Assembly (NCBI GenBank): GCA_043228905.1
Contig: JBHGNT010000007.1
Span: 20,584,001-20,648,000 of the forward strand
Source of the DNA: Azolla caroliniana
Taxonomy: Eukaryota > Plantae > Polypodiophyta
Length of the DNA: 64,000 nucleotides
Direction of reading: 5' to 3'
Within the stretch, counting starts at the first letter, position 1. Each line of letters begins with the position of its first letter. The notes under the pieces are model-generated. The model saw nothing but the letters and a program-made list of their open reading frames with translations, made no database searches and was not told the origin of the DNA. A program made the translations under genes and the position numbers. Below, piece by piece: positions 21,407 to 59,239 of the stretch.

Positions 21407-22429
21407 ACGAGACATGGGATCTTGTTCCCCACTCACCGCACAAGAAGACAATTGGCTGTAGATGGATCTAGAAGGTGAAGTATAATGCCGATGGCTTCGT
21501 AAACCGTTACAAAGATCGACTCGGAGCGAAAAGATATGCAAAAACACATGGAGTCGACTATGGGGAAACCTTTGCCCCGGTGGCAAAGATGACGACGGTG
21601 TGGACCGTAATTGCACTCGCAACGGTGAAAGGTGGCACCTCCACCAGATGGACGTCAAGAACGCATTCCTCCAAGGAGAATTAGAAGAGGTGTACATGGT
21701 ACAACTTCTCGGCTTCAAATCACCCATTCATCCAAAAGCCATGTGCCGACTCAAGAAGCCATTGTACGGCCTTGAGCAAGCACCTCTGTCGTGAAAATCC
21801 GTCACTATGTGCGGATCGTGAGGTGGAACCGTCGGGGTTCTGGACTAGAAGGATTTAGTGCAACACGTACAACACAAGCAAGTTTTAAGCATAAGACAAG
21901 TGGGAGAGACAAATCATTTGTTTATTGCAAAAGAAAATCGATTCTTTATAATTTCATAATCTTGTTACAATGGGTTGGGTATGGAAATGAGAGATTAGTT
22001 TTTCAAAGAAAGGAGCCCACAACCATGCAAGGAGTGGTCCGATATGAATACGAGAGATAATTTTTTACAAGAAAGCTCAAGTAAACAAAGCTAAGAGTTT
22101 GATATCAATATGTGAGATAATTTTCTTCTCGAATCCGAGAGGGAAGAAGAAAGAAGGGGAAAAAAGAAGAAGAAAAAAAACTACGAGGGAAAAAATGGGA
22201 CATATATCGAGCTCCTCGTTGATCCTCCTCCCCAATGTTACTTTGCATGCCCACTTTTAGTCGGATGACCTCTATTTTTAGTTGCATGGCCTCTGCTTTT
22301 AGTTGCATGCTTCCATTTTTAGATGCATGCCTTTTTACTTTTAGTTGCATGGCCTTGGCTTTTGGTTGCATGCGATTGTCCGTATAATTCGGCCAAATGA
22401 CACAATCATCCATAAAGTTTAGCCCGTGC

Positions 22430-22830
22430 GCAATCGGTACGTGCGTCACAACCAAACCGTAGACGCGTCAGCGTGCAAAAGTCTCGACCACGTAGTAGTG
22501 TACTCATCCACGCATGCGCACGTCCCGACCGCGCCGTAGTGTACGCATCCACGCGCGCGCGCGTCCAACCTGCACCGTATACGCATCCGCGCACAAAAGT
22601 CTCGTCCGCACCGTAGTGTACGCATCCACGCATGCGCGCGTGCGCACACATGTGTCCGCGCCACACATACACGTCCTTCCGAAACGTCCACGCGTACGTC
22701 CACGCATCCGCACATACGCGTCCATCCGAAACTTGCACACACGTGTACATCCGAAGACGTCCATGCGGGCGTACTTTCGAAAACGTCCACCCGGCCATTT
22801 AGACGCGTGTACGCCGAAAGCGTGCACACC
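22430..22830. repeat. CpG-dense imperfect tandem repeat inside the E LTR (also about 29455-29681 and 30411-30540)
   Basis: Repeated CGTAGTGTACGCATCCACGCATGCGC and CCGAAACGTCCACGCGTAC motifs. Confidence 0.85.
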
Positions 22831-23210
22831 ATATAGTGTAGACCAAGTCACCTTGAACATCCTATGCTCCACACATTGATAGAATGAATATGTTTTGGTT
22901 TCCATTATATATTCTGGGTTCCAATGTTGTCCTATCTATGTGGGATATCTCACAATTTTGTCTTTTCTTTTCTTTTCTTCAAACTTCACACTCACATAAC
23001 TTGATACTTGTTTATCCGTTTTATGCATAGTAAAATACGTTATGAAGCTCTATAACACATCTATCTTTCCATATCCATATATTAAGCTAATCGTAAATAG
23101 TTATTTTACTAGTTTTCATATCGTGTGTGAAAAACCACACGACATTCACCCCCACCAAACCTGCACATCCACCGGTATGTGCCAATTGTGGTGAGGTTCC
23201 TCTTTTTTAA

Positions 23211-28830: not shown

Positions 28831-29681
28831 CTTGATATCCTTCCTACCACCTCTTTCACGTCGGGTTCACCACTTAATTATGTCGTGAAAATCCGTCACT
28901 ATGTGTGGATCGTGAGGCGGAACCGCTGCGGTTCTGGACTAGAAGGATTTAGTGCAGCACATACAACACAAGCAAGTTTTAAGCATAAGACAAGTGGGAG
29001 AGACAAATCATTTGTTTATTGCAAAAGAAAATAGATTGTTTATAATTTCAGAATCGTGTTACAATGGGTTGGGTATGGAAATGAGAGATTAGTTTTTCAA
29101 AGAAAGGAGCCCACAACCATGCAAGGAGTGGTCCGATATGAATACGAGAGATAATTTTTTACAAGAAAGCTCAAGTAAACAAAGCTAAGAGTTTGATATC
29201 AATATGTGAGATAATTTTCTTCTCGAATCCAAGAGGGAAGAAGAAAGAAGGGGAAAAAAGAAGAAGAAAAAAAACTAGGAGGGAAAAAATGGGACATATA
29301 TCGAGCTCCTTGTTGATCCTCCTCCCCAATGTTACTTTGCATGCCCACTTTTAGTCGGATGGCCTCTATTTTTAGTTGCATGGCCTTGGCTTTTGGTTGC
29401 ATGCGATTGTCCGTATAATTCGGCCAAATGACACAATCATCCATAAAGTTTAGCCCGTGCGCAATCCGTAGACACGTCAACGTGCAAAAGTCTCGACCAC
29501 GTAGTAGTGTACTCATCCATGCATGCGCACGTCCCGACTGCGCCGTAGTGTACGCATCCACGCGCACGCGCGTCCAACCCGCACCGTATACGCATCCGCG
29601 CAAAAAAGTCTCGTCCGCACCGTAGTGTACGCATCCACGCATGCGCGCGTGCACACACACGTGTCTGCGCCACACATACGC

Positions 29682-30410
29682 TGTCGTGCCTTTCGGCTCC
29701 GGATCGTTTGCGTGAGTCGGGTGGGAACCACTGGGGTTTTGGACTAGGAAGAAGAGAGTTTTAAGGCTAATAAGAATATAAATATGTTGTAAGAAAGAGT
29801 TATAGCAAACTCGTGAATCCCACGAGTGTATTGTATTAGATTAATCAATATGAATATAAGAATATAAACTTCGGTTGAAAGAGAATGATATAGAATTCTC
29901 GTGAATCCCACGAGTATAGTTTATTAATTGGTGTTTTTTAGAAACATATCTAGTTTCCAAATATTTTTCACACATAATTACATTGTGCTCCCCATCCTTA
30001 TGTAGTGATGAGGAAGTCTTAGTAATCCATGCTTTTTCTCTAACTATAGACCCCATGCTTTTCCTATAGATAGACTATATGCTTTATCTAAAGTGATCAT
30101 GCTTTTTTCTAACTTGTGCGTTTTTTATCATGCACGCTAGATGTGTATGTGTAGCTTTTTCTTTTGTTATGCGTTTTTCTAATGTTTATCCTAGCGTGAA
30201 TTTACCTTTCTATGTGGGACATCTATGCTTTAACACTAATGAAATGCTAGTGTAATGGTAAGACATTACATTATTAACATGGAGGTGCAAGGTTCGAATC
30301 TTGCCCTATGCATGTTCAATTTATTTTGCTATTTTCTTCTATTTCTTCATTTTTTATTGAATCTAATACTATATACGTTTTTCACGTAGTGTACAAAATA
30401 CACTACGACA
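29682..30410 (-). mobile_element. Gypsy solo LTR of family H inserted in the 5' LTR of E
   Basis: Near-identical to the LTRs at 39576-40302 and 42367-43093; TSD ACGC. Confidence 0.97.
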
Positions 30411-30915
30411 ACGCGTCCGTCCGAAACGTCCACGCGTACGCCCGAAACTTGCACACGCGCGTACATCCGAAGACGTCTATGCGAGCGTACTTCCGAAAAC
30501 GTCCACCCGGCCATTTAGACACGCGTACGCCAGAAGCGTGCACACCACATAGTGTAGCCCAAGTCACCTTGAACATCCTATGCTCCACACATTGATAGAA
30601 TGAATATGTTTTGGTTTCCGTTATATATTCTGGGTTCCAATGTTGTCCTATCTATGTGGGATATCTCACAATTTTGTCTTTTCTTTTCTTTTCTTCAAAC
30701 TTCACACTCACATAACATGATAGTTGTTTATCTGTTTTATGCGTAGTAAAATACGCTATGAAGCTCTATAACACATCTATCTTTCCATATCCATATATTA
30801 AGCTAATCGTAAATAGTTATTTTACTAGTTTCATATCGTGTGTGAAAAACCACACGACACCGCATGCTTGGCATTCGAAGATTACACACTATCTTAATCA
30901 AATCGGCTTTCGAAT

Positions 30916-39575: not shown

Positions 39576-42500
39576 TGTCGTGCCTTTCGGCTCCGGATCG
39601 TTTGCGTGAGTCGGGTGGGAACCACTGGGGTTTTGGACTAGGAAGAGGAGAGTTTTAAGGCTAATAAGAATATAAATATGTTGTAAGAAAGAGTTATAGC
39701 AAACTCGTGAATCCCACGAGTGTATTGTATTAGATTAATCAATATGAATATAAGAATATAAACTTCGGTTGAAAGAGAATGATATAGAATCCTCGTGAAT
39801 CCCACGAGTATAGTTTATTAATTGGTGTTTTTTAGAAACATATCCAGTTTCCAAGTATTTCACACACAATTACATTGTGCTCCCCATCCTTATGTAGTGA
39901 TGAGGAAGTCTTAGTAATCCATGCTTTTTCTCTAACTATAGACCCCATGCTTTTCCTATAGATAGACTATATGCTTTATCTAAAGTGATCATGCTTTTTT
40001 CTAACTTGTGCGTTTTTTATTATGCACGCTAGATGTGTATGTGTAGCTTTTTCTTTTGTTATGCGTTTTTCTAATGTTTATCCTAGCGTGAATTTACCTT
40101 TCTATGTGGGACATCTATGCTTTAACACTAATGAAATGCTAGTGTAATGGTAAGACATTACATTATTAACATGGAGGTGCAAGGTTCGAATCTTGCCCTA
40201 TGCATGTTCCATTTATTTTGCTATTTTCTTCTATTTCTTCATTTTTTATTGAATCTAATACTATATACGTTTTTCACGTAGTGTACAAAATACACTACGA
40301 CACTCACCCCCTCCAAACCCGCACATCCTCCGGTATGTGCCGAAGTTGTTGGTGTTTGTTAGTCTCCTCCGTCCGGTCTCTAACCGATTGGTTTCGTTGC
40401 CGGCTCGTAGTACCCTCGACTTCTCTTGTTATGTTGACTTTGTCTCTCCATTTGGAGCACATCCATTCTTTCCACCCGAACCATTGTCGACATCCGATCC
40501 ACCATAGTCTTCGTTCGCTTTTTGCATGGCCCGCTTGGTCCTTGTCATCCGCGGTAGTATCTTTTCTTGCCCTCTTTCTTTTCTTCATCAATCTCGACTT
40601 CTTTTCGGATTTTCGGTTTAGTCGGATTAGCTTACTTCCGATTCGGTCTCGTCGGATCGTCTTTCGTTTAGTTCGGCTTCCTTTCCGATTTGTATTCGGT
40701 CGATCCGGACTCGGTTGATCGGTTTTTACCGATTCAGTGCTCTTTCGGGTCGGTTTCTTTTCTTTTCTTTTCGTCCGGATTTGCTTTCTTTTCTTCGTTT
40801 TCACCTGCCTTGTCCGGTTCGACTTTCGGCACTTCTTTCCGTTGTTCGCCACGTAGGTCCTCCGATATGTGCTCGTTGTTCGGTCCTCGTGTGGTTGTAA
40901 TGCATGCTTCTTTTCTCGCCGTAGCGTGTGCTTCTTTATTCGCCATAACACGCGTTTCTTTATTCGCCGTAGAGCGTGCTCTGTATTACGCGCTTCTCCC
41001 GTCGTAGACCCGACCTCCGCATTGTCGCACTTTCTTTTAGATTGGAATTTCGGATGGATCATTTTCCATCCGAACCGACTTCCGACTTTACCTTCCTCGC
41101 CGCCATCTCCCGTCTCTCCGGTCTCACGTTGGTTCTCGGACACAACCGCCGAAGTCTCTAGATATTGTTGGCATGAATCCTCGGTATTACCTTCTTTCGT
41201 AGTTTCACCCTTAGCATTCTTCTCGGCTATCTCTTCATCGTATTCGTCGGCTTCGACATTCGTTTTCTCTCCGCCACCTTCCGTCTCTTCGGTCTCACGT
41301 TGCCTTTCGATCGCAACCGCCGGAGTCTCTGGAATCAGTGGTGGGGAAGTCTCGATATGGCCATCCGTCGTTGATTCGTCCATAGCCACCTTCGATTCGA
41401 TTTCGTCTTTTGTGGCTACCTCCTTAATCACATCCGCTTCACACTCTTTATCTGCATCAATTATGCAAACATCTATTATGCTTACCCCTTTTTGACCCGA
41501 TGTCTCGGGCACTTGTATCCCGAAATTTCCTTCTACACTTGAATTATCGGCCTTATCCTTCGCCATCGTTCTTTCACAAGACGAGTGGGTGTCTTGTTCC
41601 ACTCTTTCTCCCGTGGTACCATCATGTTGTATTTCGGCCTTCATATTGGCTTCATCGTTTTTCCTCAATCGACCATCCTTCATGGGCCATGTCGTTGTTG
41701 ACGAGATTCTCAGCTTCCTTTCATCATGTCTTCGGCATACCCTTTCGACTTTGGCCCAATCCTCGGTAAGGCCGTTCGCACCGTCATCATCTTCGAGTTC
41801 GATCCCAATGTCCATCCTTTCTTTCCGATCGATCGATCTTACGAACATTAAGACTTTATCTTCTCCCACCAATCTTCGTTCCCGCTCCGAGAGTCGAGCA
41901 AGACGATGCTCGAACTCTAGGAATGCTTGTGTTGCACTTCGGTGGGTCTTCTCCGATGCCACCCATTCGTCGAATTCTCGCCGATCTTGTCCCTTCGATC
42001 TCTTGTAATCATATGACTCTCGTAAAGCTTCTTCGAATGACCCCCATGTCGAGTTTTGTTGCCGTATCTTGTGGATTCTCTCTTGTAGCTCATCCGTGGC
42101 CACCCGATTGAAGGATGTCACTTGCAATCCTTCCGGTATCCCATATCGTATCATCTCCGCCTTGTAGTCACGTAGATAGCATGACACATCGTTTCCGTTG
42201 AATTGTCCGTTTCGTTGTACGAGCCGCTTTACTGCCCCCGTGATCTCCGACATCACTCGTTGTTCTTGTAGCATCCGCTCGAACATCATCATCATCGTTA
42301 TACTCATTGCCTCTTCTTGATTCTCCATCTCCTTGCCACCCGCCTTCACGTCGGGTTCACCAACTGTGTCGTGCCTTTCGGCTCCGGATCGTTTGCGTGA
42401 GTCGGGTGGGAACCACTGGGGTTTTGGACTAGGAAGAGGAGAGTTTTAAGGCTAATAAGAATATAAATATGTTGTAAGAAAGAGTTATAGCAAACTCGTG

Positions 42501-43093
42501 AATCCCACGAGTGTATTGTATTAGATTAATCAATATGAATATAAGAATATAAACTTCGGTTGAAAGAGAATGATATAGAATCCTCGTGAATCCCACGAGT
42601 ATAGTTTATTAATTGGTGTTTTTTAGAAACATATCCAGTTTCCAAGTATTTCACACACAATTACATTGTGCTCCCCATCCTTATGTAGTGATGAGGAAGT
42701 CTTAGTAATCCATGCTTTTTCTCTAACTATAGACCCCATGCTTTTCCTATAGATAGACTATATGCTTTATCTAAAGTGATCATGCTTTTTTCTAACTTGT
42801 GCGTTTTTTATTATGCACGCTAGATGTGTATGTGTAGCTTTTTCTTTTGTTATGCGTTTTTCTAATGTTTATCCTAGCGTGAATTTACCTTTCTATGTGG
42901 GACATCTATGCTTTAACACTAATGAAATGCTAGTTTAATGGTAAGACATTACATTATTAACATGGAGGTGCAAGGTTCGAATCTTGCCCTTTGCATGTTC
43001 CATTTATTTTGCTATTTTCTTCTATTTCTTCATTTTTTATTGAATCTAATACTATATACGTTTTTCACGTAGTGTACAAAATACACTACGACA
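39576..43093 (-). mobile_element. Young non-autonomous Gypsy element H (LTR-gag ORF-LTR, TR-GAG-like)
   Basis: 727-bp LTRs 39576-40302 and 42367-43093 with about 2 differences; TSD GCGT; tRNA-Trp PBS about 42345-42362; PPT next to 40303; no PR/RT/IN motifs. Confidence 0.96.
40304..42349 (-). CDS. gag: Gag-derived protein with long acidic then basic low-complexity tail (681 codons; first ATG about 42328)
   Basis: N-terminal about 230 aa homologous to gag of G (GQFNG.DVS.YLRDYKAEMIR.GI.EGLQVTSFNRVATD); ORF is open from PBS to PPT. Confidence 0.85.
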   Translation of the reverse strand: MKAGGKEMENQEEAMSITMMMMFERMLQEQRVMSEITGAVKRLVQRNGQFNGNDVSCYLRDYKAEMIRYGIPEGLQVTSFNRVATDELQERIHKIRQQNSTWGSFEEALRESYDYKRSKGQDRREFDEWVASEKTHRSATQAFLEFEHRLARLSERERRLVGEDKVLMFVRSIDRKERMDIGIELEDDDGANGLTEDWAKVERVCRRHDERKLRISSTTTWPMKDGRLRKNDEANMKAEIQHDGTTGERVEQDTHSSCERTMAKDKADNSSVEGNFGIQVPETSGQKGVSIIDVCIIDADKECEADVIKEVATKDEIESKVAMDESTTDGHIETSPPLIPETPAVAIERQRETEETEGGGEKTNVEADEYDEEIAEKNAKGETTKEGNTEDSCQQYLETSAVVSENQRETGETGDGGEEGKVGSRFGWKMIHPKFQSKRKCDNAEVGSTTGEARNTEHALRRIKKRVLWRIKKHTLRREKKHALQPHEDRTTSTYRRTYVANNGKKCRKSNRTRQVKTKKRKQIRTKRKEKKPTRKSTESVKTDQPSPDRPNTNRKGSRTKRKTIRRDRIGSKLIRLNRKSEKKSRLMKKRKRARKDTTADDKDQAGHAKSERRLWWIGCRQWFGWKEWMCSKWRDKVNITREVEGTTSRQRNQSVRDRTEETNKHQQLRHIPEDVRVWRG

Positions 43094-44370
43094 GCGTATC
43101 ATTCCAGAACGAAGCACATCCAACGGAGGTACCACTAGATTCGGGAGCGAGTAGAAGACCGAGAGTTCATGCTAACAAAGATCCACACGGAGGAGAACGG
43201 GTCGGATATGCTGACCAAGGTGCTGACGCTCGACAAGCTAGATGCATACTGGAAGCGGATTGGATTGACAAGGCATCCCATGCCAGAGTGAAGGGGGAGT
43301 TTGTTAGGATCTCGATCCCTCCGGATGGCATACGAAGGCCCGACATCGGAAGACCCAGTGAGAACCGGATGTGGAGTACCCGGCAACGGAAGACCCGGTG
43401 AGAACCGAATGTTGCAGGCCCGGTGAGAATCTCTCATCGGATGGAAGGGACATATATGTAAATATGTTCTAGAGAGCCCACTGGGGCTATATTTGTAAAT
43501 AGCCCGAAAGTCATATTAGTATAAATATGACCTAGGGAAAACTTAATAGTTATGATGATAGAGTTACTGGTGTAACTTCTGTACAGTGCGTAAGAGTGAG
43601 AGAGAGAGCGATATACAGAGATCGTGTCTCTGTTGTAACCTCCGCTAGGCGAAGATTATGAGCAAGAGGTTGTTGCCTCTGTGCTCCCTGTTGTATTTAT
43701 TTGACATAGTGATAGTTTGGAGTCTGTGGAGTCCCGTGGTTTTTCCCTTTCAGGGTTTTCCATGTTAACATCCTGTGTATTCTCTTTCCGTTTTACGTAC
43801 TTACCCCCATTCCCATTTCTTTTGTGTTTGATTGTCATCAAGTGATCTACCCTTCGGTTGTGGCCGGAGATTATTCCACATATTTCTCGTCAGTTTCATA
43901 CATAAGGTGTTTTATAGACATGAGTCTATATAACAACTTCATTGATGAGACCGAAGTAGATGTTTTGTGGAAGACGATAGGGAGTATGTTTGAGAAGAAA
44001 AATTCCTTGAATAGAGTGTCCATCTTTAGGAAGATAATGAGGCTGAGATACTAAGATGGCTCGAGCATGGCTGACCACTTGAATGCATTTCAAGGGCTAA
44101 TAAACTAGACTCTATGTCTAGAAATACCTCTAATAGAAAAGATATTAGCCTTATTGTTGTTGGGCTCTCCCCTAGATAGTTGGGAGACACTTGTCGTGAC
44201 CTTAGGTAACTCAACACCACAAGGAAAACAATTGACACTAGATATTCTCAACTTGAGCCTTCTAAGTCAAGAAGCAAGACAAAAAGAGTGTGGCCCCAAC
44301 TCTGAGCATAAGGCCCTAATCATAGAAGGTGGCCCTAATAGAGGAAGCATTAGACAAAGAGGTTCACAAG

Positions 44371-45392
44371 ACATCTAGTCGAATGATTATGTTGTTTTGC
44401 ACACCTCCATCTATTCATTTACGTGATATCTTCCCTCTATCAAGTATATGGCCCACACCTCTCCATGAATCAGGGCACAACCATGGTTGAACCGGTGACC
44501 TATCGGACTACCGCCGATTACTTTACCACTCAGCTATACACCCTCACCGAAAAGAAACATTCCATTGCAATCCACCATTCATTCATGTACATAGATTCCT
44601 GTACATGAAATCTAGACTTCCTTTCGAAAGACCTCAACTCTTAGACTTAGGGCTCAGCCAGGGTTGAACTAGTGACCTATCAGACTTTAGCCGATTGCTG
44701 TAGCACTGAACTTTAAACCCGCGCCCAAAAGAAACATTATGTGGCAAACTTCCATTGACTCATGTAGAAGACATCCAAACGAATTATTATTTCAGTTCGG
44801 ACATCTCCTTGAATCAGAAGGTAGCTGGGGTTCATCGGAGACTTATCATACTTTAACTGATTGGTCTACCACTAAGATATAAATACGGGCCCCTAAAGAA
44901 ATATCATGTCGAAATATCCATTCATGTACATGAAATCTACACTTCTTAGAATTTGGGCTCAACAAGGGTTGAACTAATGATCTATCAGATTGTAGCCAAT
45001 TGCTGTAGCAGTGAAGTTTACACCCGCGCACAAAAGAAACATTTCGTAGCAAACGTCCACTGATTCATATAGAAGAAGTCCACAGTAATTATTACGTCAT
45101 TTCGGACATTTCCTGGAATCTGGAGCTAGGCGGGGTTGAACCGATGACCTATCGTACTACGGCCGATTGATATATCACTTCGATATACACCCCGTCAAAA
45201 AGGAAATATCACGTCGAAATCTCCATTGATTTATCTACAATATATCTAGTCGAATTATTATGTAGTTTTGCACACCTCCATCTATTCATTTATGTGATAT
45301 CTTCATCATCCATTAGGTATATGGCACACAACATCACCTTGAATCAGGGAGAAACCGGGGTTGAACTGATGACCTATCGAACTGCGGCTGAT
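44371..45392 (-). repeat. tRNA-Cys-derived tandem array, left block (about 6 monomers)
   Basis: Same five monomer types and spacers as 51412-56517; ends mid-tRNA at the junction with Gypsy F. Confidence 0.92.
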
Positions 45393-45418
45393 GACCACGA
45401 CTCCTAGAGAAATACGGG

Positions 45419-47229
45419 TTGGACGACGCGCTCCGGCTTTCGAAACGGGACTTCATGGAATGGGTGGAGTCCCCCGGCAAGGGAAGAAACGCGTCGGCAC
45501 TCCCCCGGGAGTTCGAAGAACGCTTTGCGCGCCTTTCGGCGCTTGACCGAACCGTTCTGGATACGAGCCGGGTCCTACTATTCGTCAAGTCGGTGGACGA
45601 GCGGGACCGGGATCAAGTCGGCTCTTTGCTGGAAACCGAAGACGGGCTGACGATCGACTGGGCTGCGGTTAAGAGAGTCTGTGGCCGTTTCGACAAACGG
45701 CGAGAATGGGCTGACAACGGGGCGGCTGGTGCGGGCTCAGTCACAGCAAGGAGGCTTGAACCGGCACCGCAAGGGCGAAGGGAAGAAACCCGGAAATGGC
45801 TAGAAACCGGTCCGGCTTCGACCGGCATGGTCAGTGGCTCGTCCGGAGGAGCAGCGCTGGAGGAGTTGACGCGGGTGATAAAGGATCTCCAGATTGCCCA
45901 GACTCGAAGGGAAGGCGGCGAACCGGCTCGTGACCGACGGCCGGTAGCAGGGAACAGGTGCATGTGGTGCGACGAGGTCGGCCACATCCGGAAGGACTGC
46001 GGCGATTTCGCTGAGGCGTTGAGGAACCGGGTGGTGTACCTGTGGGAAGGCCGGGTGCACGCCAGCAATACCAGAAGGGCCCTAAACCGAAATGACGGGC
46101 GAGGAGATATGAAGAGACTGATGGAAGAGGCAGCGGCCCGACACGTGGAGACCATCCACTACTCGGCGTCGGCCGGCATCCGGGTCGGGGGCAGCGAGGC
46201 CCGAAAGGAGGGCAAAGACGGATTCTGGTCGGCAATGCTGGGAGCTCTTGCCGGCCTACGGCTGAGGAAAGATGAAACGGACCACGTTGAGAGACGGGTC
46301 CGGGAAATAACCGGGTGGAGCGATCCGGTCGAGGAGAAGACGGCCTTCGTAGAAGCCGCCTGCCGGAACTACGAGGCTCTGGTAGAAGACAAACGAGTGG
46401 GGAAAGCCAGAGCGGCCGGACCCTCACAACGGTACGAGACCCGATTCGGGCAACGACGGGACGATGCCGGTGGGTCCAGTTCGCAGGATAACCCCAGGAA
46501 GGGCGGATACCGACTGGGGACGGAAATAGAAAGGACCACGGACCTACGAAAGGTCCTAGAAGAGCGGATCCTCGACAGCAAAGTGGAGCTGTCATTGCGG
46601 GAGGTGCTAGGGATCGCTAAGAAGGAGTTCCACGACTCCATTGTGGACTTGGTGAAGCGGAAGAGGCTGTTGACGGAGACGGAACCGGAAAGGCCGGTGG
46701 AGATGCGGACGACGCACATCGACGATTTGGCGCTGGAAGATGAGTGGGCGGAGAGCCACTATTCGAGGCCACACTGGGCCCGAGCGACCACGGAGACCCC
46801 GGTAAAGATCAGAGAAGTTCAGGAACCGGTGGTGGCATTGGTGGACCACGGTTCGGAATAAACCTGATGTCCATGGACTTCTATAAGAAGGGAAAGTGGC
46901 TGATCAACACCAAGCACGGGTGGAAGATACGGGCGGCGACGCGCGCCACCGAGGAACTGCACGGGGCCTACCCGAACGTGCGAGTCAAGATCGGCGACGT
47001 CGAGATTGACCAGCACTTCTTCGTACAGGAGACGTCCTCGCACCCGGTCATATTAGGGGAACCATACATCACGGCAACGCGAATGGAGACCAAGGTGCTG
47101 GACAACGGTTCGGCCTACGCGAGGGTCAAAAACCAGGACGGGCGCCATTCGGTTCAATTTCTGACGGTGCGGCCAAACCACGAGCGAAACCGCGAATCCC
47201 TCGGTGGCGAGAACCGGGAGGATTTTTAG
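45419..47229 (+). pseudogene. gag: gag-protease ORF1 of F, 5'-truncated, one frameshift about 46858
   Basis: CMWCDEVGHIRKDC knuckle, VALVDHGSE, HPVILGEPY; ends GAT TTT TAG. Confidence 0.9.
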
Positions 47230-47286
47230 AGAGGGCTGTCAAGGCGTGGGGCCAAGATAGCCCGGACACTCGGGAAAGACCCCACG
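47220..47286 (+). promoter_or_regulatory. Putative -1 ribosomal frameshift signal of F (G_GAU_UUU, UAG, pseudoknot)
   Basis: Stem1 GGGCTGTC/GATAGCCC, stem2 CGTGGGG/CCCCACG; -1 frame is open into pol. Confidence 0.85.
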
Positions 47287-50200
47287 ACTGTACGATAGAA
47301 CCGAAACCGAAGATACCTTGCACGATAGGTAGGAAATTTTGCTTCTCCAACGACGGAGGGTGTGTAATGGTCGGCATCGTTGGCCGAGAAAAGGCAAGGG
47401 CGGAGGAGCGACTTCGAGCGTGCGGAGTCCTTGGCCTGGACGAGGAAATCAGCGGAGCCGTGGAGGCGGTCTCCTTCGACGACACCTTGGGAATGCTGAG
47501 GAAGGTAGCTGGAGAAGACCTTAACGAAGACCGGACAATACCGGTATGTTCCGAAGAGATGTACGAAGTCATCGCGGACTTCAGTCAGGGGCTCAGGTCG
47601 GATCGGACGGCCCGAGTTAGCACGAAGTACAAGACTGTGGACCGGAAGGTAAGGCCAGTCGCGGCACCCTTACCGGAGGGCAGCGAGTCCCGGATCAGAG
47701 GGGTTGCGTCGGACCCCAGTTTACGAGATCCGGTCTGCATAGGACACACCTTCACCGACGGAACGCTCCGGGAGCTCAAAATCGGTGGGGGCGGGTTCGT
47801 ACTGCCGGCGGAGGAAGACCGGTTTTGGAGAAGCTCGGAAGGCACGGGAAAGCCTTCGCATTCTCGCCGGAAGAGATCGGGTGCGTAGACCCGACAATCG
47901 TGGACCCGATGGTGATATTCACGGTACCGTATGTACCATGGAATCTCAAGCCGATTCTAGTACCGAGAACTCACATCCCGAAGTTGATGGAGCTATTGAG
48001 GCAGAAAGTCGATATGGGTATTCTCGAATCGTCGAGCGCGCCATACTCGAATCGATGGTTTACCGTACCAAAGAAAAACGGAACATTGCGCTTCATTCAG
48101 GACCTGCAGCCGGTCAACAGAGTGACCATTCGGAACGCAAGAATCGGACCGACCATAGACGAGTTCGCGGAGGCCTTCGCCGGGAGGTCGATTTACTCGG
48201 TCGGCGATCTGTACTCGGGGTACGACCAGTTCCAGCTAGTCGTGGAGAGCAGAGACATTACGACGATGCGAACTCCCCTCGGCCTAGTACGAATGTGTAC
48301 CCTGCCACAAGGAGGGACCAACTCGGTGGCCCACATGGTGAATGCAATGAACAAGGTACTGAGGGATTGCATCCCGGACATCACCATGCCATTTCTAGAC
48401 GACATCCCGATCAAGGGGTGCCCGATGGAAGAGAAGGACGCGACACTCAGACCGGATGGATGCCGGCGATTCGTGGCAGCACACATCGACGACTGCGAGA
48501 AGGTGCTACAAAGGCTAGAGGATGCGAGGCTCACCTTCTCCGGGGAGAAATCGGCCTTCGGGCAATCAGAAATCCTGGTGGTCGGACACCTATGTGGACC
48601 ATATGGCCGGAAGCCGTCTCCGGCAAAAGTAGAAGCCATCTCCGCGATGAAGACCGACTGTAGCTCGGTTACGGAAGTTCGGAGGTTCCTGGGGGCATGC
48701 GCATTCTACCACATATGGATCCCGCACTACGCCCACGTTGCGGAGCCGCTATACGGGTTGCTGAAGAAGGGGCGGAAATTCGAGTGGCGAGACGAGCACA
48801 CGGAGTCGGTCCGGAAGCTGAAGGAAGCTCTTGTGGCAGCACCGGCGCTCCGGAAGGCTGTCTACGAGAAGGGTACCCCGGTATACATAACGGTGGATAC
48901 GAGTTCGACCGGGATCGGATGGGTCTTCAACCAAGAAGACATGAATGGCATTCGGTTCCCGATCCGATTCGGCGCGAAGGTCCTCAGTGAGCGACAACGA
49001 GGGTACGCCCAGGTTAAACGCGAACTCTGGGGTATCGTTTCGGCAGTAAAGGCCTACAAAGACTACCTGATCGGGACGGAGGTGATTATCGAGACGGATT
49101 GCCTGCCAATTCTCGGCATGGTTTTCGGATGCGTGACACCGGACTTGGCAATGCTCAGGTGGATAGCGTACATCAAGTCCCTGGATCGGGAAATACGACA
49201 CATTTCCGGAAAGGACAACGCCATGGCCGACATGCTTTCGAGGGCGAGGTTTGATGACGAGGGCGGCATGGTTTCGGAGGACGAAGAAGTCGGCGTGGAC
49301 TTCTTCGAGGCGGCGTACGTGACGACCGATGGGACGAGCACTCTGGCACTTAACGACTTCGAAGAGAGCAAGTACGACGGCGAGTGGCTCCAGATCGGTG
49401 GATTTTTGAGGACAATGACGCCGGATGCGTCATGGACGAAGGACGAGGCCAACCGGATCCGGAAGAAGGCTTACCGATTCTTTCTCCGGGACGGATACTT
49501 ATGGAAGCACCCGAAGAAGAGGAACGGCGTCCCGCTCCGGGTGGTGGCGATGAAGGAAGAACAGGAGGAGCTGCTGATGGCCTACCACGATAGCCCTTGG
49601 GTCGGACACCGTGGAACCTGGGCCACGTTCGAGAAGATAAAGGGGAAGTACTGGTGGTCGGGACTGTACTGGGACGTGCATCGGTTCGTGACAACTTGCG
49701 AGAGCTGTCAGATGCACTCCATAGTCCGACACCGGGACGAACTTCACCCTACGTACCCTCCGACCATCCACTTCAAATGGATGGTAGACCTGGTGACGAT
49801 GCCGATGGGAGTAGGACAGATGCGGTATCTGGTCCTGGCTCGGGAAGATTTGACGAACCAGGTGGAAGGCCGGGCCCTTCAGAACAAAACGACTGCAGCC
49901 GTATGTCGGTTCCTGCTCGAGAACGTAATATGCCGGTACGGGTGCGTCGGGAAGATCATGGCTGATCGCGGGGAGTTGGACGCCGAAGAGGCCGAGGAGT
50001 TGTTTGACCGGTTAGGGGTCAAGCTCTCGCTTACCACTGCATACAATCCGGAGGCAAATGGAAAGGTGGAACGCGGACATGAACCGATCGTCAAGGCGTT
50101 AGTTCGGGCATGCGGAGGGCAAGTCGGGAACTGGCCACGACTGCTGCCTTACGTGTTGTGGGCTGACCGAACTACGCACAGTTCGGTAACCGGATTCATG

Positions 50201-50722
50201 CCGACAGAGCTCATGTTTGGGCAGAAGCCGGTCATGCCGATGGAACGTACGATCTCCTCATGGGCAACCGTGGACTGGAGAAACGAGATGAGCCGGGAGG
50301 AACTGTTGGTGGCGCGCATACGACAGCTTGAGCGAAGACCGGAGGACGTGGAGCAGGCTGCGGGAAAGCTTCGGGTGGCAAGGACGAGGAACAAAGCCCG
50401 GTTCGACCGGACGCACCGGCTCCGACCGAAGAAGATCGAGGAAGGCGACTGGGTGCTAGTCTATGACAGTAGCCTCGACAACCAGCACCGAGCAACACGG
50501 AAGTTCGCAAGAAGGTGGTTCGGGCCTTACGTGGTACGAAGCGCCAACGACAACGGGACGTACCATCTGGCAGAACTCGACGGCACGAGAATGGCAATAC
50601 CAGTAGTTGGGAAGCGGATCAAAGCGTTCAAGAAGCGTCACGACGACGAGCCGGATCCGGATAACCTGGACCGGGACGACGAACGATCCGAAACCGAAGA
50701 AGAACCGACGGGCGAGGAATAA
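47220..50722 (+). CDS. pol: Pol ORF2 of F (RT-RNase H-integrase), one lesion about 47825; 965-aa open segment
   Basis: RT DLYSGYDQ and PFLDD; RNase H TVDTS; integrase HHCC (YHDSPWVGHRG...CESCQ), DDE core, GPY motif; no chromodomain. Confidence 0.93.
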
Positions 50723-52036
50723 AGGCTGGACCGGTTTTTTCCGTCCCAACTCAATTTGGCGCATGCCGGTGGATGCGCGGTTAGGTGGGGGCGGATGTTG
50801 TGAAGAAAACCGTCCACGAGCGGAATCGGTGCGCCGGAGCATAGGAACCGGCTCTTCATGCACGCACGCCTTACGTTGTACATAGAAGATCCTAGGTAGG
50901 AAGATTCGGTAGGTAAGAAGTTAATAGGAAACGGCTCCCTTCTTGCCTATAAAAGGAGGGAGACGAGGAGGATGAAGGGATCGCGAAGTAAGAGAGGACG
51001 AAGTGCTGTCGGATTGTGGGCCGAAGGCTTCTCTCTCTTCCAAACTCCATAGCTCCTTTCTGTGCAGGTTTCGGGAGGCTCGCGCTGCTCTGAGGAATGC
51101 CTGAGTGCTTCCGGCAGCACCTCCAACCTACTCCTTTCTTTCTGTGCGTTTACGAACAGGCATCGGCATCTGTTCGCCGGCCTGTTCGGTTGTAACCGAC
51201 TTCGTCCTCTTGTTGTTTGTCTTTGTTCATACATACATACATTCGTGTCTCTCTGTGTCGCTGTCCCACTCGCGTCTTTGGGTCGAAGGGCCGTGTCCCT
51301 GTGGATCTATGCTCGCACGTAGTGGGTCTCTTCTCCTTTCTCTCTTGCTCTTCGGTACAGGACCCCCGAGGTCCTGCCTCTTTCTACGCATCCGCGAGGA
51401 ATACCTCGACAACGCACAAAAGAAACATTATGTGGGAAACTTCCATTGACTCATGTAGAAGACGTCCAAACGAATTATTATTTCAGTTTGGACATCTCCT
51501 TGAATCAAAAGGTAGTCGGGGTTAATCAGAGACTTATCATACTTTAACGGATTGGTCTACCACTAAGATATACAGACGGGCCACTAAAGAAATATCACGT
51601 CGAAATATCCATTCATGTACATGAAATCTATACTTCTTAGAATTTGGGCTCAGCAAGGGTTGAACTAATGATCTATCAGATTGTAGCCAATTTTTGTAAC
51701 ACTAAAGTTTACACCCGCACACAAAAGAAACATTTCGTGGCAAACGTCCACTGATTCATATAGAAGAAGTCCACACTAATTAGTAAGTCATTTCGGACAT
51801 TTCCTAGAATCTGGAGCCAGGCGGGGTTGAACCGATTACCTATCGTACTACGGCCGGTTGATCTATCACTTAGATATACATGCTGTCAAAAAGGAAATAT
51901 CATGTCGAAATCTCCATTGATTTATCTACAATACATCTAGTGGAATGATTATGTAGTTTTGCACACATCCATCTATTCATTTACGTGATATCTTCAGCAT
52001 CCATTAGGTATATGGCGCACAACATCTCCTTGAATT

Positions 52037-52108
52037 AGGGCGCAACCGGGGTCGAACCGGTGACCTATCGGACTGCAGCCGATTGCTCTACCACTGAGCT
52101 ATACGCCC
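52037..52108 (-). tRNA. trnC-GCA: tRNA-Cys(GCA)
   Basis: GGGCGTA TA GCTC AGTGGTA GAGC A ATCGG CTGCAGT CCGAT AGGTC ACCGG TTCGACC CCGGT TGCGCCC T: all stems pair, U73 discriminator, intact A and B boxes. Confidence 0.92.
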
Positions 52109-52897
52109 ACGCACAAAAGTGATATTACGTCACAATCTGCCATTCATTCATCTACTAGATATCGAGTCAAATTATTACGAGTTTAGGGAAACTTCCATCG
52201 ATTCATGTACATGACATCTAGACTTTATTTTTAAAGACATCTCAGCTTTGAGACGTACGGCTCAACCGGGGTTGAACTAGTGACCTATCAGACTTTAGTC
52301 GATTGTTGTAGCACTGAACTTTAGACCCATGTGGCAAACGTCCATTGACTCATGTAGAAGACGTCCAAACGAATTATTGTTTCAGTTTGGACATCTCCTT
52401 GAATCAGAAGGTAGCTGAGATTCATTAGAGACTTATCGTACTTGAACCGATTGGTGTACCACTAAGATATACATTCCGGCCACTAAAGAAATATCACGTC
52501 GAAATATCCATTCATGTACATCAAATATACAGTTCATTTCTAAAGGCACCTCACCTCTTAGAATTTGGGCTCAACAAGGGTTGAACTAATGATCTATCAG
52601 ATTGTAGCCAATTGCTGTAGCAGTGAGGTTTACACCCGCGCACAAAAGAAACATTTCGTGGCAAACCTCCACTGATTCATATAGAAGAAGTCCATACTAA
52701 TTATGAAGTCAATTCGGACATCCGATTAATCTAGCACTTAGATATACATCACAAAGAAAAAATCATGTCGAAATCTCCATTGATTTATCTACAAGACATC
52801 TAGTCGAATGATTATCTAGTTTTGCACACCTCCATCTATTCATTTACGTGATATGTTCATTCAATTAGGTATATGGCATACAACATCTCCTTGAATT

Positions 52898-52969
52898 AGG
52901 GCGCAACCGGGGTTGAACCGGTGACCTATCGGACTGCACCCGATTGCTCTACCACTGAGCTATACACCA
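52898..52969 (-). pseudogene. tRNA-Cys(GCA) copy with G1 and position-32 substitutions
   Basis: Same sequence as the intact copies but the first acceptor pair is broken. Confidence 0.75.
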
Positions 52970-54955
52970 TTTATTCATGTATTAGATATATCCATTCGAA
53001 CTATTATGAGATTCCGGATACTTCCATCAATTCACTAACATGAAATCTAGACTTTATTTTGAAAGGCACCGCAGTTTTTAGACGTAGGGCTCAACCAGGA
53101 TTGAACTAGTGACCTATCAGACTTTAGCCGATTGTTGTAGCACTGAACTTTACACCCGCGAACAAAAGAAACATTATGTGGCCAAATTCCATTGACTCAT
53201 GTAGAAGACGTCCAAACGAATTATTATTTTAGTTTGGACATCTCCTTGAATCAGAAGGTAGCTGGGGTTCATCGGAGATTTATCGTATTTCAACCGATTG
53301 GTCTACCACTAAGATATATATCCTCAGCACTAAGGAATTATCACATCGATATATCCATTCATTTGCATGAACTCTACACTTCATTTCGAAAGGCACGTCA
53401 CCTCTTAGAATTTGGGCTCAGCAAGGGTTGAACTAATGATCTATCAGATTGTAGCCAATTTATGTAGCACTGAAGTTTACACCCGCGGACAAAAGAAACA
53501 TTTCGTGGCAAACCTCCACTGATTCATATAGAAGAAGTCCACAATAATTATTACGTCATTTTGGACATTTCCTGGAATCTGGAGCCAGGCGGGGTTGAAC
53601 CGGTGACCTATCGTACTACGGCCGATTGATCTATCACTTAGATATACACCCCGTCAAGAAGGAAATATCACGTCGAAATCTCCATTGATTTATCTACAAT
53701 ACATCTAGTCGAATTATTATGTAGTTTTGCACACCTCCATCTATTCATTTACGTGATATCTTCAGCATCCATTACGTATATGGCACACAACATCTCCCTT
53801 AATCAGGCACAACCGGGGTTGAACTGGTGACCTATCGGACTACTGCCAATTGCTCTACCATTGAGCTATACACCCATGCAAAAAAGAAACATTACGTCAC
53901 AATCCGCCATTCATTCATCTACTAGATATACAGTCCAGTTATTATGAGATTTCAGACACTTCCATCGATTCATGTATATGAAATCTACACTTTATTTTGA
54001 AAAACACCTCAACTCTTAGACGTACGGCTCAGACGGGGTTGACCTAGTGACCTATCAGACTTTAGCCGATTGGTGTAGCACTGAACTTTAGACCCACACA
54101 TAAAAGAAAAATTATGTGGAAAACCTCCATTGACTCATGTAGAAGACGTCCAAACGAATTATTATTTCACTTCGGACATTTCCTTAAATCAGAAGGTAGC
54201 TAGGGTTCATCGGAGACTTATCGTACTTCAACCGTTTGGTCTACCACTAAGATATACATCGCGGCCACTAAAGAAATATCATGTCCAAATATGCATTCAC
54301 GTGCATGACATCTACACTTCATTTCGAAAGGCACCTCACATCTTAGAATTTGGGCTCAGCAAGGGTTGATCTAATGACCTATCAGACTGTAACCAGTTGT
54401 TGTAGCACTAAAGTTTACACCTGCACACAAAAGAAATATTTCGTGGCAAACCTCCACTGATTCCTATAGAAGAAGTCCACATTAATTATTATGTCGTTTC
54501 GGACATTTCTAGGAATCAGGAGGCAATACGGCCGATTGATCTATCACTTAGATATACACCCCATCAAAAAGGAAATATCACGTCGAAATCTCCATTGATT
54601 TATCTACAATACATCTAGTGGAATGATTATGTAGTTTTGCACACCTCCATCTATTCATTTACGTGATATCTTCAACATCCATTACGTATATGGCCGAAAA
54701 GAAACATTTTGTGACAAACCTCCACTGATTCATATAGAAGAAGTCCATACTAATTATGAAGTCAATTCGGACATCCGATTAATCTAGCACTTAGATATAC
54801 ATCACAAAGAAAAAATCATGTCGAAATCTCCATTGATTTATCTACAAGACATCTAGTCCTGACGAACGATTATGTAATTTTGCACACCTCCATCTATTCA
54901 TTTATATGATATGTTCACTCCATTAGGTATATGGCATACAACATCTCCTTTAATC

Positions 54956-55027
54956 AGGGCGCAACCGGGGTTGAACCGGTGACCTATCGGACTGCAGCCG
55001 ATTGCTCTACCACTGAGCTATACACCC
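54956..55027 (-). tRNA. trnC-GCA: tRNA-Cys(GCA)
   Basis: Complete 72-nt cloverleaf, two G-U pairs in the acceptor stem, T loop TTCAACC. Confidence 0.85.
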
Positions 55028-55385
55028 CCGCACCAAAAAAACATCTAGTGGAATGATTATGTAGTTTTGCAAACCTCCATCTATTCATTTACGTGATATC
55101 TTCAGCATCCATTACGTATATGGCCCAAAAGAAACATTTCGTGACAAACCTCCACTGATTCATATAGAAGAATTCCATACTAATTATTAAGTCAATTCGG
55201 ACATCCGATTGATCTAGCACTTAGATATACATCACAAAGAAAATATCATGTCGAAATCTCCATTGATTTATCTACAAGACATCTAGTCCTAACAAACGAT
55301 TATGTAATTTTGCACACCTCCATCTATTCATTTATATGATATGTTCACTCCATTAGGTATATGGCATACAACATCTCCTTTAATC

Positions 55386-55457
55386 AGGGCGCAACCGGGG
55401 TTGAACCGGTGACCTATCAGACTGCAGCCGATTGCTCTACCACTGAGCTATACACCC
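55386..55457 (-). tRNA. trnC-GCA: tRNA-Cys(GCA), one extra G-U pair in the anticodon stem
   Basis: One substitution relative to the copy at 54956-55027. Confidence 0.75.
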
Positions 55458-55815
55458 ATGCACCAAAAAAACATCTAGTGGAATGATTATGTAGTTTTGC
55501 AAACCTCCATCTATTCATTTACGTGATATCTTCAGCATGCATTACGTATATAGCCCAAAAGAAACATTTCGTGACAAACCTCCACTGATTCATATAGAAG
55601 AAGTCCATACTAATTATTAAGTCAATTCAGACATCCGATTGATCTACCACTTAGATATACATCACAAAGAAAATATCACGTCGAAATCTCCATTGATTTA
55701 TCTACAAGCCATCTAGTCCTGACGAATGATTATGTAATTTTGCACACCTCCATCTATTCATTTATATGATATGTTCACTCCATTAGGTATATGGCATACA
55801 ACATCTCCTTTAATC

Positions 55816-55887
55816 AGGGCGCAATTGGGGTTGAACCGGTGACCTATCGGACTGCAACCGATTGCTCTACCACTGAGCTATACACCC
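55816..55887 (-). pseudogene. tRNA-Cys(GCA) pseudogene
   Basis: T stem broken by two mismatches (ACCGG/CAATT). Confidence 0.75.
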
Positions 55888-56627
55888 ACGCACCAAAGAA
55901 ACATTATGTTGCAATCCACCATTCATTCATCTATTAGATATCTAGTTGAATTATTATGAGATTCTGGATACTTCCATCGATTCATGTACATGAAATCTAG
56001 ACTTGATTTTGAAAGGCGCCGCAGTTCTTAGACGTAGGGCTCAGCCAGGATTGAACTAGTGACCTATCAGACTTTAGCCGATTGCTGTAGCACTGAACTT
56101 TACACCCGCGCACAAAAGAAACATTATGTGGCAAACTTCCATTGACTCATGTAGAAGACGTCCAAACGAATTATTATTTTAGTTCGGAGATATCCTTGAA
56201 TCAGAAGGTAGCTGGGGTTCATAGGAGATTTATTGTATTTCAACCCATTGGTCTACCACTAAGATATATATCCCGGCCAGTAAGGAAATATCACATCGAA
56301 ATATCCATTCATTTCCATGAACTCTACACTTCCATCGATTCATGTACATGAAATCTAGACTTGATTTCAAAAGGCACCTCAACTCTTAGACATAGGGCTC
56401 AACCGGGGTTGAACTAGCGACCTATTAGACTATAGCTGATTGTTGTAGCACTAAACTTTACACCTGCGCAAAAGAAACATTACGTGGCAAACCTCCATTG
56501 ACTCGTATAGAAGACGTTGTCGTAGTGTGAATTACACACTATGTGGAATATGTAAAACACTACATCCGATTTAGAGTCCGTATAATAAATAAATAAATAA
56601 AATAAAATATTAAAAATATTTATTACA

Positions 56628-56699
56628 TGCATAGGGTAGGATTCGAACCTTGTACCGCCACATAGACAAACCTCAGGCTTACCACTATACTAGCATACT
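56628..56699 (-). promoter_or_regulatory. tRNA-like Pol III promoter in the LTR of G (homologues at 21210-21275, 30241-30312, 40133-40204, 42924-42995 on +)
   Basis: A box TAGTATAGTGG and B box GGTTCGAATCC at tRNA spacing, followed by oligo-T. Confidence 0.75.
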
Positions 56700-59175
56700 A
56701 TGAATCTTAAAAGTTAGACTAAACTTTATCCCATGTAAATATTCTAGATATGCATGGTACAAAAAGTTATTCATTCATACACACTTGAGTTAAAAGAAAA
56801 GATGGGACAAAAAGCTAATCATGCACATGCAATGTGCATGAAAACTAAAGTTAGGAAAAGCAAGATGCTTGCATGTGATAAACTTAGACTCTTTCAACAC
56901 TATATAAGGAAGGGAGAAAGATGTATAGAGGTTGTTGATTATTTTACAAGGGTTGATTAATATAATATATTCGTGGGATTTACGAATTTGCTAACTTTTT
57001 TTTCTCTCTTAATCTAACTACTCTCTAATACACTATACTCGTGGGATTCACGAGTTTTTCATCTCTTTCTTTCTTACAATATATTTCATATTCTTAATTT
57101 CCTTAGAATTTTCTTTTCTCCTAGTCCAAAACCTCAATTGTTCCCGCCCGACTCACGTAACGATCCGGAGCCGAAAGGCACGACAGATTTGGTGAACCCG
57201 ACATGAACACGGGTGGCAAGGAGATGGAAAATCAACTGGAGGCTAACAACATGATGATAATGTTGGAGCGGATGCTTCAAGAACAACGTGCAATGTCGGA
57301 GATAGCGGCGACAGTAGAGCGGCTCGTGCATTGGATCGGGCAATTCAACGGAAAGGACGTATCACGGTATCTTCGGGACTACAAGGCGGAAATGATACGG
57401 TGCGGGATTTCGGAAGGACTGCAAGTGACATCCTTCAACCGGGTGGCTACCGACAGGCTTCAAGCAAGTATCCACGGGCTACGACAACAAAATCTGACGT
57501 GGGAAGCGTTTGAAGAGGCACTAAAGACCACGTTCGCTATCGAGGACTCCTCCAAGGCAACGTGGAGAGGATTTAAGGATTGGGTGGAAACGTCGGACAA
57601 GGGGATGAAGGTCCTCAATGTGTTTTAGGCATTCGAAAGTCGGTTCGGGAGGCTGTCCGCGAGAGATCAAGCTATCCTTGCACCGAACAAAGTGATCATG
57701 TTCTTACAAGCCGTAGACATCCGGGACCGGAAGGATCTTGAAGTGCTTCTAGGGGACACGACTACCGAGAGTGGCCTCACCGAAACATGGGAAAGCGTGC
57801 AGGATATCGTCGCGCAATACACAAAGAGGGGGCAATGGCTTGCCAACGAAGAAAAGAGGGTTTCGGAACCAACTCCGGATCGGAAGACCATGAACTGCGG
57901 GCTCAAGAGACTACAACCGAGAAGGGAATCGACACAACCACGGTGGAGCAATTGTTGAAGGAGATGGAGAGTCTGAAAATCGCGATGGTGAAGAAGACGG
58001 AAGACCGTCCCACATGTTCCAAGTACATGGATTGTCGATGCATATGGTGCGATAGCACCAAACATGATCGGAGAGATTGCGACGAGCACAAGGAAATCGG
58101 ATTCATTCGATGGACTCATGACGAAGAAGGTCCTAGAGGACGAGATCGTGGCGAAAGACAATTATGTGACAACCGCAGGAATACGTGTTGGGGAGTCATC
58201 TGCAGCAAAGGTGTCTTTTTGGTCGGAAGTGTTAGAAATTTCGAAGAAAGCCGACCATGATGAAATCCGAAGCGTTGCGGAATGTATCCGGGAAGCTACG
58301 GGATGGGAGTGCCCCATAGATAAGAATAGCGTACATGCGCTATGTCAATTGCATCAAGTGTATGTGGATGAAAAATGACGGCGCGCAGATGATGCGGCCG
58401 GACCATTGAAGACACCGGAAAGCTGGAACTCCGGAGGGAAGGGAAAAGAAAAGACGATTCCGGCATTCAAGCTCGCCTTGGACATCGAACAACAAACGAA
58501 CTTGAAAAAGGTGTTGGAAGAGAGAATCCTCGATAGCTGGGTAGAATTTTCGCTTCGGGAATTACTCGGAATAGCGAAGAAGGAGTTCCATGATCTTCTT
58601 GTGGATCTCGTGAAGAGAAAAAGACAAAGTACGGAGGAAAATGCACCGATGGTGAATGCAAATACCATTTTGATGAACGACACCAAACTGGAGGATGAGA
58701 TTCCGAATTCCCACTGTACAAAGCCACACTAGGTGCGTGCAACTACCGAGACTACAGTCTGAATCGGCAACATCAAAGAGCCCGTGCTAGCATTGATTGA
58801 TCACGGATCGGAAATCAATTTGATGTCTAAGGAGTTCTACCAGAAGGGGAAGTGGCCTATTAACACCAATCATGGATGGAAGATCTGGGCGGCCACTAAA
58901 GCAACGAAAGATCTATTTGTGGCTTGTCCGGATGTGACGGTGAAGATCGGGGATGTCGAGATCGACCAAAATTTCTTCGTACAAGACGAGGTCTCACACT
59001 CTGTGATCCTCGGGCAACCCTTTACCATGACTTCACGGATGGAGACAAAGGTGCTCGATAGCGGTGCGACTTTCGCACGAATTCGGAGCCAAAGTGGAGG
59101 AAAATCCATCCAATTCCTAACTGTGCCGGCAAATCATGAAAGGAACAAGAGAGAGCTCTTGTCCCAAACAAGGAT

Positions 59176-59239
59176 GGATTTTTAGAGTGGAGTGTTGCGG
59201 AGTGGGGAAGTGATAGTCCGAGAAGCCCTGATACCCCAC
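59176..59239 (+). promoter_or_regulatory. Putative -1 ribosomal frameshift signal of G
   Basis: GGATTTTTAG, imperfect stem1, stem2 GTGGGG/CCCCAC. Confidence 0.75.

Follow-up and report, generated by a model that had tools for sequence, protein, structure and literature searches.

Three decayed Ty3/Gypsy copies, here called E, F and G, lie in a 64,000-nucleotide stretch of Azolla caroliniana DNA (contig JBHGNT010000007.1, positions 20,584,001 to 20,648,000; the window in what follows), and in each of them the first open reading frame, ORF1, closes at G GAT TTT and a stop codon upstream of the pol core. How, then, is pol expressed? An earlier reading of the window had proposed a functional, virus-like recoding in a plant Gypsy lineage, with a −1 slip at GGATTTT in front of a pseudoknot.

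The junction in the three window copies

From a re-reading of the window, it is clear that the positions and sequences given for the three cassettes in the original prediction are correct (Table 1), and that ORF1 ends at G GAT TTT plus stop in 3/3 copies. The heptamer GGATTTT has 11 occurrences in the window when both strands are counted; GGATTTTTAG has only 3, likewise on both strands, and every one is at a protease end. Stem 1 of E is formed by CGGACTATT/AATAGTCCG and its stem 2 by GTGGGG/CCCCAC, and stem 1 of G contains one mismatch. The −1 frame, said to be open into pol in E and F, is indeed free of stops in both copies between heptamer and pol core motif; over the same interval, the G linker has one stop in this frame. 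The statement that ORF1 includes the protease holds for intact relatives (ORF1 of about 700-770 codons), but not literally for the decayed copies. In F, a frame break near 46857 separates gag from the protease frame, a second break interrupts pol near 47800-47890, and gag is 5′-truncated where it borders on an array of tRNA repeats. E carries in-frame stops.

Table 1. Features of the frameshift cassettes and of the elements that carry them.
Feature	Position	Strand	Remarks
F gag	45395-46861	+	DUF4100 match below curated cut-off; ends in protease active-site motif
F protease, C-terminal part	46858-47229	+	ends ...REDF-stop; intact relatives have a predicted retropepsin fold
F slippery heptamer G GAU UUU (X XXY YYZ type)	47220-47226	+	GGATTTT; conserved in 61/80 related loci
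F pol N-terminal linker and start of pol core	47220-47888	+	−1 frame
F ORF1 (gag-protease) stop TAG	47227-47229	+	adjoins heptamer
F predicted pseudoknot stem 1, GGGCTGTC / GATAGCCC	47233-47240 with 47256-47263	+	6-nt spacer from heptamer
F predicted pseudoknot stem 2, CGTGGGG / CCCCACG	47245-47251 with 47280-47286	+	
F pol RT-RNaseH-integrase	47621-50722	+	frame break upstream in copy F
F putative 3′ LTR	50796-51411	+	after purine-rich tract; then ACGC (NCGN)
E whole element	21787-30859	−	PBS at about 28872-28857
E frameshift cassette (heptamer, stop, both stems)	26586-26649	−	heptamer 26649-26643
G 5′ LTR	56518-57185	+	preceded by ACGT (NCGN)
G PBS	57190-57202	+	
G frameshift cassette	59176-59239	+	heptamer 59176-59182; stem 2 GTGGGG/CCCCAC
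Sister clade cassette	L049:2491-2569; L055:2829-2907		AG_GUU_UUU site and predicted pseudoknot, one base closer

Assignment of the elements and of the protease

Pfam matches to RVT_1, RT_RNaseH, Integrase_H2C2 and rve were found in F pol, with no chromodomain match, and the domain order is GAG-PROT-RT-RH-INT (Pfam on F pol; protease by fold). Target-site duplications (TSDs) of 4 bp and the form NCGN flank a short element of the window (GCGT/GCGT; 39576-43093) and a solo LTR at 29682-30410 (ACGC/ACGC). The TSD of E is CCTC/CCGC, with one mismatch, and single flanks are available for F (ACGC) and G (ACGT). In E, G and the short element, the 5′ LTR is followed after 4-8 nt by a TGG-type PBS, TGGTGAACCCGAC, which presumably matches tRNA-Trp. 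By these features, E, F and G appear to be Ty3/Gypsy elements of the type of Phygy, a non-chromovirus lineage of bryophytes. In the accessible text of Neumann et al. 2019 (PMC6317226), Phygy of Physcomitrium patens is given a 4-bp NCGN TSD, the order GAG-PROT-RT-RH-INT, no chromodomain and a PBS for tRNA-Trp (or Thr), and its ORF organisation is entered as 'ND' in Additional file 5. In contrast to that entry, the layout found here is a GAG-PROT frame that overlaps a −1 pol frame, or a −2/+1 pol frame in a single clade. The range also differs from Phygy as surveyed (Physcomitrium), since the named protease homologs include not only P. patens but also Riccia sorocarpa, Adiantum nelumboides and Calypogeia fissa. 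The Physcomitrium homologs have 60-68% protease identity, and metagenome protein homologs are up to 97% identical.

The domain upstream of the heptamer carries the motif AL[IV]DHGSE. By Pfam, it gives a protease match only below the cut-off, and in a PDB sequence search Ty3 Gag-Pol was the only match (E 0.18). When its model (pLDDT 64) was used in a fold search, the Ddi1 and HIV-1 retropepsins were matched (best E 5e-5), and this search settles the domain as a predicted retropepsin-fold protease. The active-site motif D-H-G (46846-46857 in the window, and in homologs) is nearly invariant in the lineage, D-Q-G being present in locus L058; retropepsins usually have D-T/S-G at this place.

Comparative evidence for the −1 frame

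A metagenome scan confirmed 182 relatives, and the analysis was made on the best 80 of the 182, ranked by likeness to F and including many near-duplicates. Among these best 80, GGATTT[T/C] with a stop behind it closes the protease frame in 61 loci; the type of stop varies but the stop stays (TAG 30, TAA 22, TGA 9; n=61). Another 17/80 end otherwise and 2/80 have no junction, the 17 being broken copies except for L058, in which the ORF1 stop lies five codons past GGATTTC, and L049/L055, a pair described below. The pol core could be reached in 58 loci, in the −1 frame in 50, in frame 0 in 4 and in +1 in 4, and the 8 loci outside −1 consist of 6 broken copies and L049/L055. A pol ORF of at least 900 codons opens at the junction in 28/80 loci (26 in −1, 2 in −2/+1), and all 26 of the long-pol −1 loci end ORF1 in GGATTT[TC] plus stop. 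In 6 of 26 −1-type rows the pol frame closes already 1-3 codons upstream of the heptamer, and in none of the 26 (0/26) is there an in-frame AUG upstream of it. This minimal overlap, with no upstream AUG, pins the shift to the heptamer.

The same rows bear on the possibility of separate synthesis of pol, with an AUG or a transcript of its own. In most families there is a Met about 20 codons before the pol core motif, which could serve such a start, but this Met is missing from L021 and L070, and about 100 codons upstream of it are under purifying selection. Together with the missing upstream AUG, this makes separate synthesis of pol very improbable.

The pol-frame linker, 120-130 codons long and with a dN/dS of 0.38, is coding and under purifying selection. 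Among 3201 codons from 25 families, the pol frame contains 0 stops and the other frames 214 and 274, a zero that is partly built in, since the families were picked for an open linker. Synonymous divergence, taken over nine pairs, is 0.19 in the cassette, 0.36 in the linker, 0.50 in pol and 0.55 in the protease. Such a linker, stop-free in one frame only and offering no non-coding spacer, speaks against the splicing out of a stop-containing segment as in Ogre, where GAG-PROT is split from RT-RH-INT by an intron according to the accessible text of PMC6317226. Some gene models of Physcomitrium, Riccia and Adiantum do skip the stop, as predictions only, but splicing would leave the heptamer and the knot unexplained. 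No joint was seen in 26 aligned RNA reads (85-95% identity, both strands), about 6 of which cover the heptamer; this is a weak point, the reads being too few for direct exclusion. We regard splicing as highly unlikely. Joints present in DNA contigs were rejected as splicing, being low-depth deletions in single copies.

It could also be supposed that the U-run is a site of transcriptional or reverse-transcriptase slippage, with a one-base insertion putting pol in frame, and reverse-transcriptase slippage at shift motifs is reported (PMC5737442 and PMC5737552). However, the U stretch has no more than 4-5 bases, with 3 U and a C in L070-L072 and L058, no indel at the junction run is listed at a 5% share in four sequencing runs, and conservation includes the GGA at the front, which tRNA re-pairing needs. 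We give this route hardly any credence.

At the protein level, a C-terminal DF is present in 58/120 homologs among the matches listed, after linkers of varying length, and in the proteins of Physcomitrium and Adiantum DF is retained six residues from the end. Of 140 cluster representatives, 14 end in DF, 17 have DF within 8 residues of the end and 45 are truncated before the junction, the remainder ending otherwise or running on. A residue without a G-ending codon precedes DF in 0/59 distinct tails, against a background of 0.29 (the rows being related). Of the 120 listed homolog proteins, 27 extend beyond the junction, and most of these are gene models from eukaryotes in which the stop has been skipped; frameshifting would account for gene finders mis-modelling such loci. 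Four distant ORF1 homologs (P0163, P0174, P0079 and P0216) end near NF or GF, which suggests that other heptamers (A_AAU_UUU, G_GGU_UUU) may stand at the corresponding place.

A distant locus, L081, has retained GGATTTT-TGA, and its −1 frame is open. It is a plant-type retrotransposon in a cyanobacterial genome assembly (contig CADCWO010000092.1), and the contig is likely contamination. The genome-contig scan also gave one weak match, L082, which was left out of the analysis, and scans of viral contigs gave no usable related locus.

A predicted pseudoknot downstream of the heptamer

The structure alignment contains 27 chosen rows, namely the 3 window copies and 24 loci. Stem 1 was found in it unprompted by RNAalifold, at a 5-6 nt spacer across the rows, and double changes are present in 6/10 of its pairs. 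Its covariation score of 0.278 was reached by 0/500 shuffles and exceeds the slid controls (≤0.159), although relatedness inflates such scores. The compensatory differences first noticed between families in this stem are thus borne out by the covariation check.

Stem 2 can be drawn as a 4-8 bp helix in 27/27 rows, which keeps GGGG/CCCC while each of the three codon phases is represented among the positions of its 3′ arm. Its compensations are few (UA to CG in L067/L079; GC to AU in L049/L055). Row by row, the signal is weak, with p<0.05 in 11/27 and a median of 0.09; combined over 13 lineage picks, p is about 5e-6. Thus, of the proposed pairing between the loop GTGGGG and a downstream CCCCAC, the pairing potential is present in every row, but only 11/27 rows reach p<0.05 singly. 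Fold prediction for F gives a small hairpin within the loop that competes with stem 2, and the single-sequence fold of G is no better than that of shuffles (z −0.2). The gap between the stems is 4 nt, longer than in compact H-type knots. In Rfam, no family matched the knot at E≤1.

Among the rejected readings were chance as the source of the cassette, the decay of a single ORF, since frame and site are uniform across lineages, and protein constraint alone, since three different codon phases are found for the stem 2 arm and synonymous divergence is suppressed.

In L058 (5400-5500) and L081 (1110-1220), the heptamer and the −1 frame are kept and the knots are built differently, with a longer stem 1; in L058 the ORF1 stop falls inside stem 1.

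Proposed mechanism

We are highly confident that gag-protease and pol are joined by pseudoknot-stimulated −1 frameshifting. Gag-protease and pol are encoded in two overlapping frames, and under this reading a ribosome at G GAU UUU would pause at the predicted pseudoknot 6 nt downstream and slip back one base, so that GAU UUU in the P and A sites would re-pair as GGA UUU through a tandem slip of tRNA-Asp and tRNA-Phe. The slipped ribosomes would read D-F-L into pol. A minority of ribosomes would presumably give the Gag-protease-Pol fusion in this way, while most would stop at the adjacent codon and release Gag-protease. The efficiency of the slip, the folding of stem 2 in the mRNA and a contribution of the stop codon are parts of the scheme that we infer.

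None of the alternatives, be it splicing, a separate start or polymerase slippage, accounts for the combined features. The frame relation, minimal overlap, covariation, synonymous constraint and coding linker agree with one another, and on this comparative evidence a real and functional recoding throughout the lineage, as originally proposed for a plant Gypsy lineage, is very likely.

A sister clade with pol in the −2/+1 frame

The loci L049 and L055 (77.5% nucleotide identity; monophyletic in 100/100) have intact pol ORFs of 1098 and 1151 codons, respectively, which lie in the −2/+1 frame. Their ORF1 ends in CAG GTT TTT TAC/GAC TAG, and in the −1 frame a stop is met either immediately or after 4 codons. 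Since both align gap-free with the −1 type in the pol frame, their slippery site is one base closer to stem 1. At the L055 junction, contigs from three DNA runs and three organisms list no indel, and two records are gap-free. The five cluster members that extend to the end share QVFD. Proteins of Riccia and Calypogeia also end near VF.

There is about an even chance that ribosomes slip two bases at AG_GUU_UUU in this pair. The accessible text of PMC3458567 reports that −2 slips in vitro are optimal at a spacer 1-2 nt shorter, and the knot lying one base closer in L049/L055 matches this rule. The broader reading, in which a local pseudoknot drives a −1 shift behind the protease in the lineage and one clade has gone over to a −2 slip, also driven by the pseudoknot, for its essential Gag-Pol recoding, seems to us evenly balanced; in such a switch, the slippery site would have moved one base closer to the knot and changed to RG_GUU_UUU. 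Only 2 loci represent the clade, and P-site re-pairing from GUU to AGG would be poor after a −2 slip. In the accessible text of PMC3458567, a change of the first base of U6A abolished the −2 shift.

It is also quite possible, if somewhat short of an even chance, that pol is reached here by slipping +1 on UUU_U/G or by re-initiating at an AUG close by. Besides the poor P-site pairing after a −2 slip, this route is favoured by the UUU_U of L049, which gives perfect +1 re-pairing, and by a pol-frame AUG upstream in both loci (2 and 5 codons). However, the +1 codon of L055 would be UUG, a mismatch for tRNA-Phe, and the AUGs stand at different places, 16/26 of the −1-type rows having AUGs in that frame by chance. 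The knot is also kept, with compensations of its own and at a frameshift-type distance. In addition, the residue preceding VF in related proteins that end in it is Q, K, W, R or G, each compatible with RG_GUU, as judged from protein sequences.

The two-base slip would, if true, be a natural RNA-structure-driven −2 frameshift in a retroelement, and the clade a case, evolved in nature, of the rule on spacer length (mRNA tension). Since the −1 and −2/+1 clades have a common stimulator and differ by one spacer base, they offer a natural test of spacer length against slip direction.

Its nearest likeness is the −2/−1 site GG_GUU_UUU of PRRSV nsp2TF, an arterivirus site with a product in the −2 frame (accessible text of PMC4937337), and, as in PRRSV, the site of L055 is directly followed by a −1 frame stop. 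According to the same text, PRRSV needs nsp1beta and PCBP on a C-rich motif and no RNA structure, whereas a pseudoknot is predicted here, and the shifted product here would be the essential pol. The arterivirus downstream motif CCCANCUCC is absent from the 130 nt after the stop in both L049 and L055. The L049/L055 site would at most work like the arterivirus site, and we do not class it as a member.

Comparison with known systems

The red clover necrotic mosaic virus shares the G_GAU_UUU heptamer, and to this extent the viral comparison first drawn for the window stands. It does not extend to the structure, because the dianthovirus and umbravirus sites use long-range pairing, while here both stems are local, within 60 nt. 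Avian retroviruses, named at first as the parallel for a gag-pro/pol split, do have one, but Ogre and Retand of the Tat lineage are closer analogues. They are also non-chromoviruses with the GAG-PROT/RT-RH-INT split point (accessible text of PMC6317226). Ogre has a spliced spacer and Retand a single stop, whereas the frames overlap here, and no archaeal-type RNase H is evident in our elements by a search without a dedicated model.

The mechanism itself is classical and of a known kind. According to the accessible text of PMC3458567, the −1 signals of IBV, retroviral gag-pol and PEG10 have in common an X_XXY_YYZ heptamer, a 5-8 nt spacer and a downstream stem or knot. In contrast to these, the host here is a retrotransposon of non-seed plants, the shift comes after the protease and the stop is directly 3′ of the heptamer. 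The GGA is an imperfect XXX, as in the G_GAU_UUU of pea enation mosaic virus RNA2, where a nearby stop matters but its identity is free (accessible text of PMC5009743).

For plant LTR elements, no description of such a cassette was found in the searchable literature, a scope that leaves subscription journals and Repbase outside. PMC7466625 has no mention of frameshift, ORF or Phygy, and a Chlamydomonas preprint mentions frameshifting only generically. Plant elements surveyed earlier have single ORFs, +1 overlaps, stop codons or splicing, and a 2003 survey, as cited in the accessible text of PMC5009743, had only two kinds of plant element with split frames, both with pol in +1. Overlapping GAG and PROT ORFs, their direction not given, are entered for Tcn1 and Selgy in Additional file 5 of PMC6317226 (accessible part), and other non-seed-plant lineages may thus also frameshift. 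The cassette described here would fill in the expression strategy of a retrotransposon lineage widespread in bryophytes and ferns, and would offer a compact −1 signal native to plant ribosomes.

Other elements in the window

The window is a nest of LTR retrotransposons, with several Copia elements besides the three copies of Gypsy type, E on the minus strand, F and G. The apparently intact Copia element at 9488-14844 is young (LTRs 99.4% identical) and has one 1293-codon ORF. The short element at 39576-43093, also young (LTRs 99.7% identical, TSD GCGT, PBS as in E and G), has a single 713-codon ORF (40304-42445, minus) that is gag-like only at its N-terminus and contains no pol; it is likely a non-autonomous partner. 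Its LTR is related to that of G, and the solo LTR that interrupts the 5′ LTR of E (29682-30410) belongs to its type.

The regions 44366-45392 and 51413-56517 form a degenerate tandem array of minus-strand tRNA-Tyr(GTA) and tRNA-Cys(GCA) genes (7 ARAGORN calls), which may represent a cluster of tRNA genes, repeats resembling SINEs or a site preferred for insertion. The 5′-truncated copy F sits inside this array, between units that are 92% identical.
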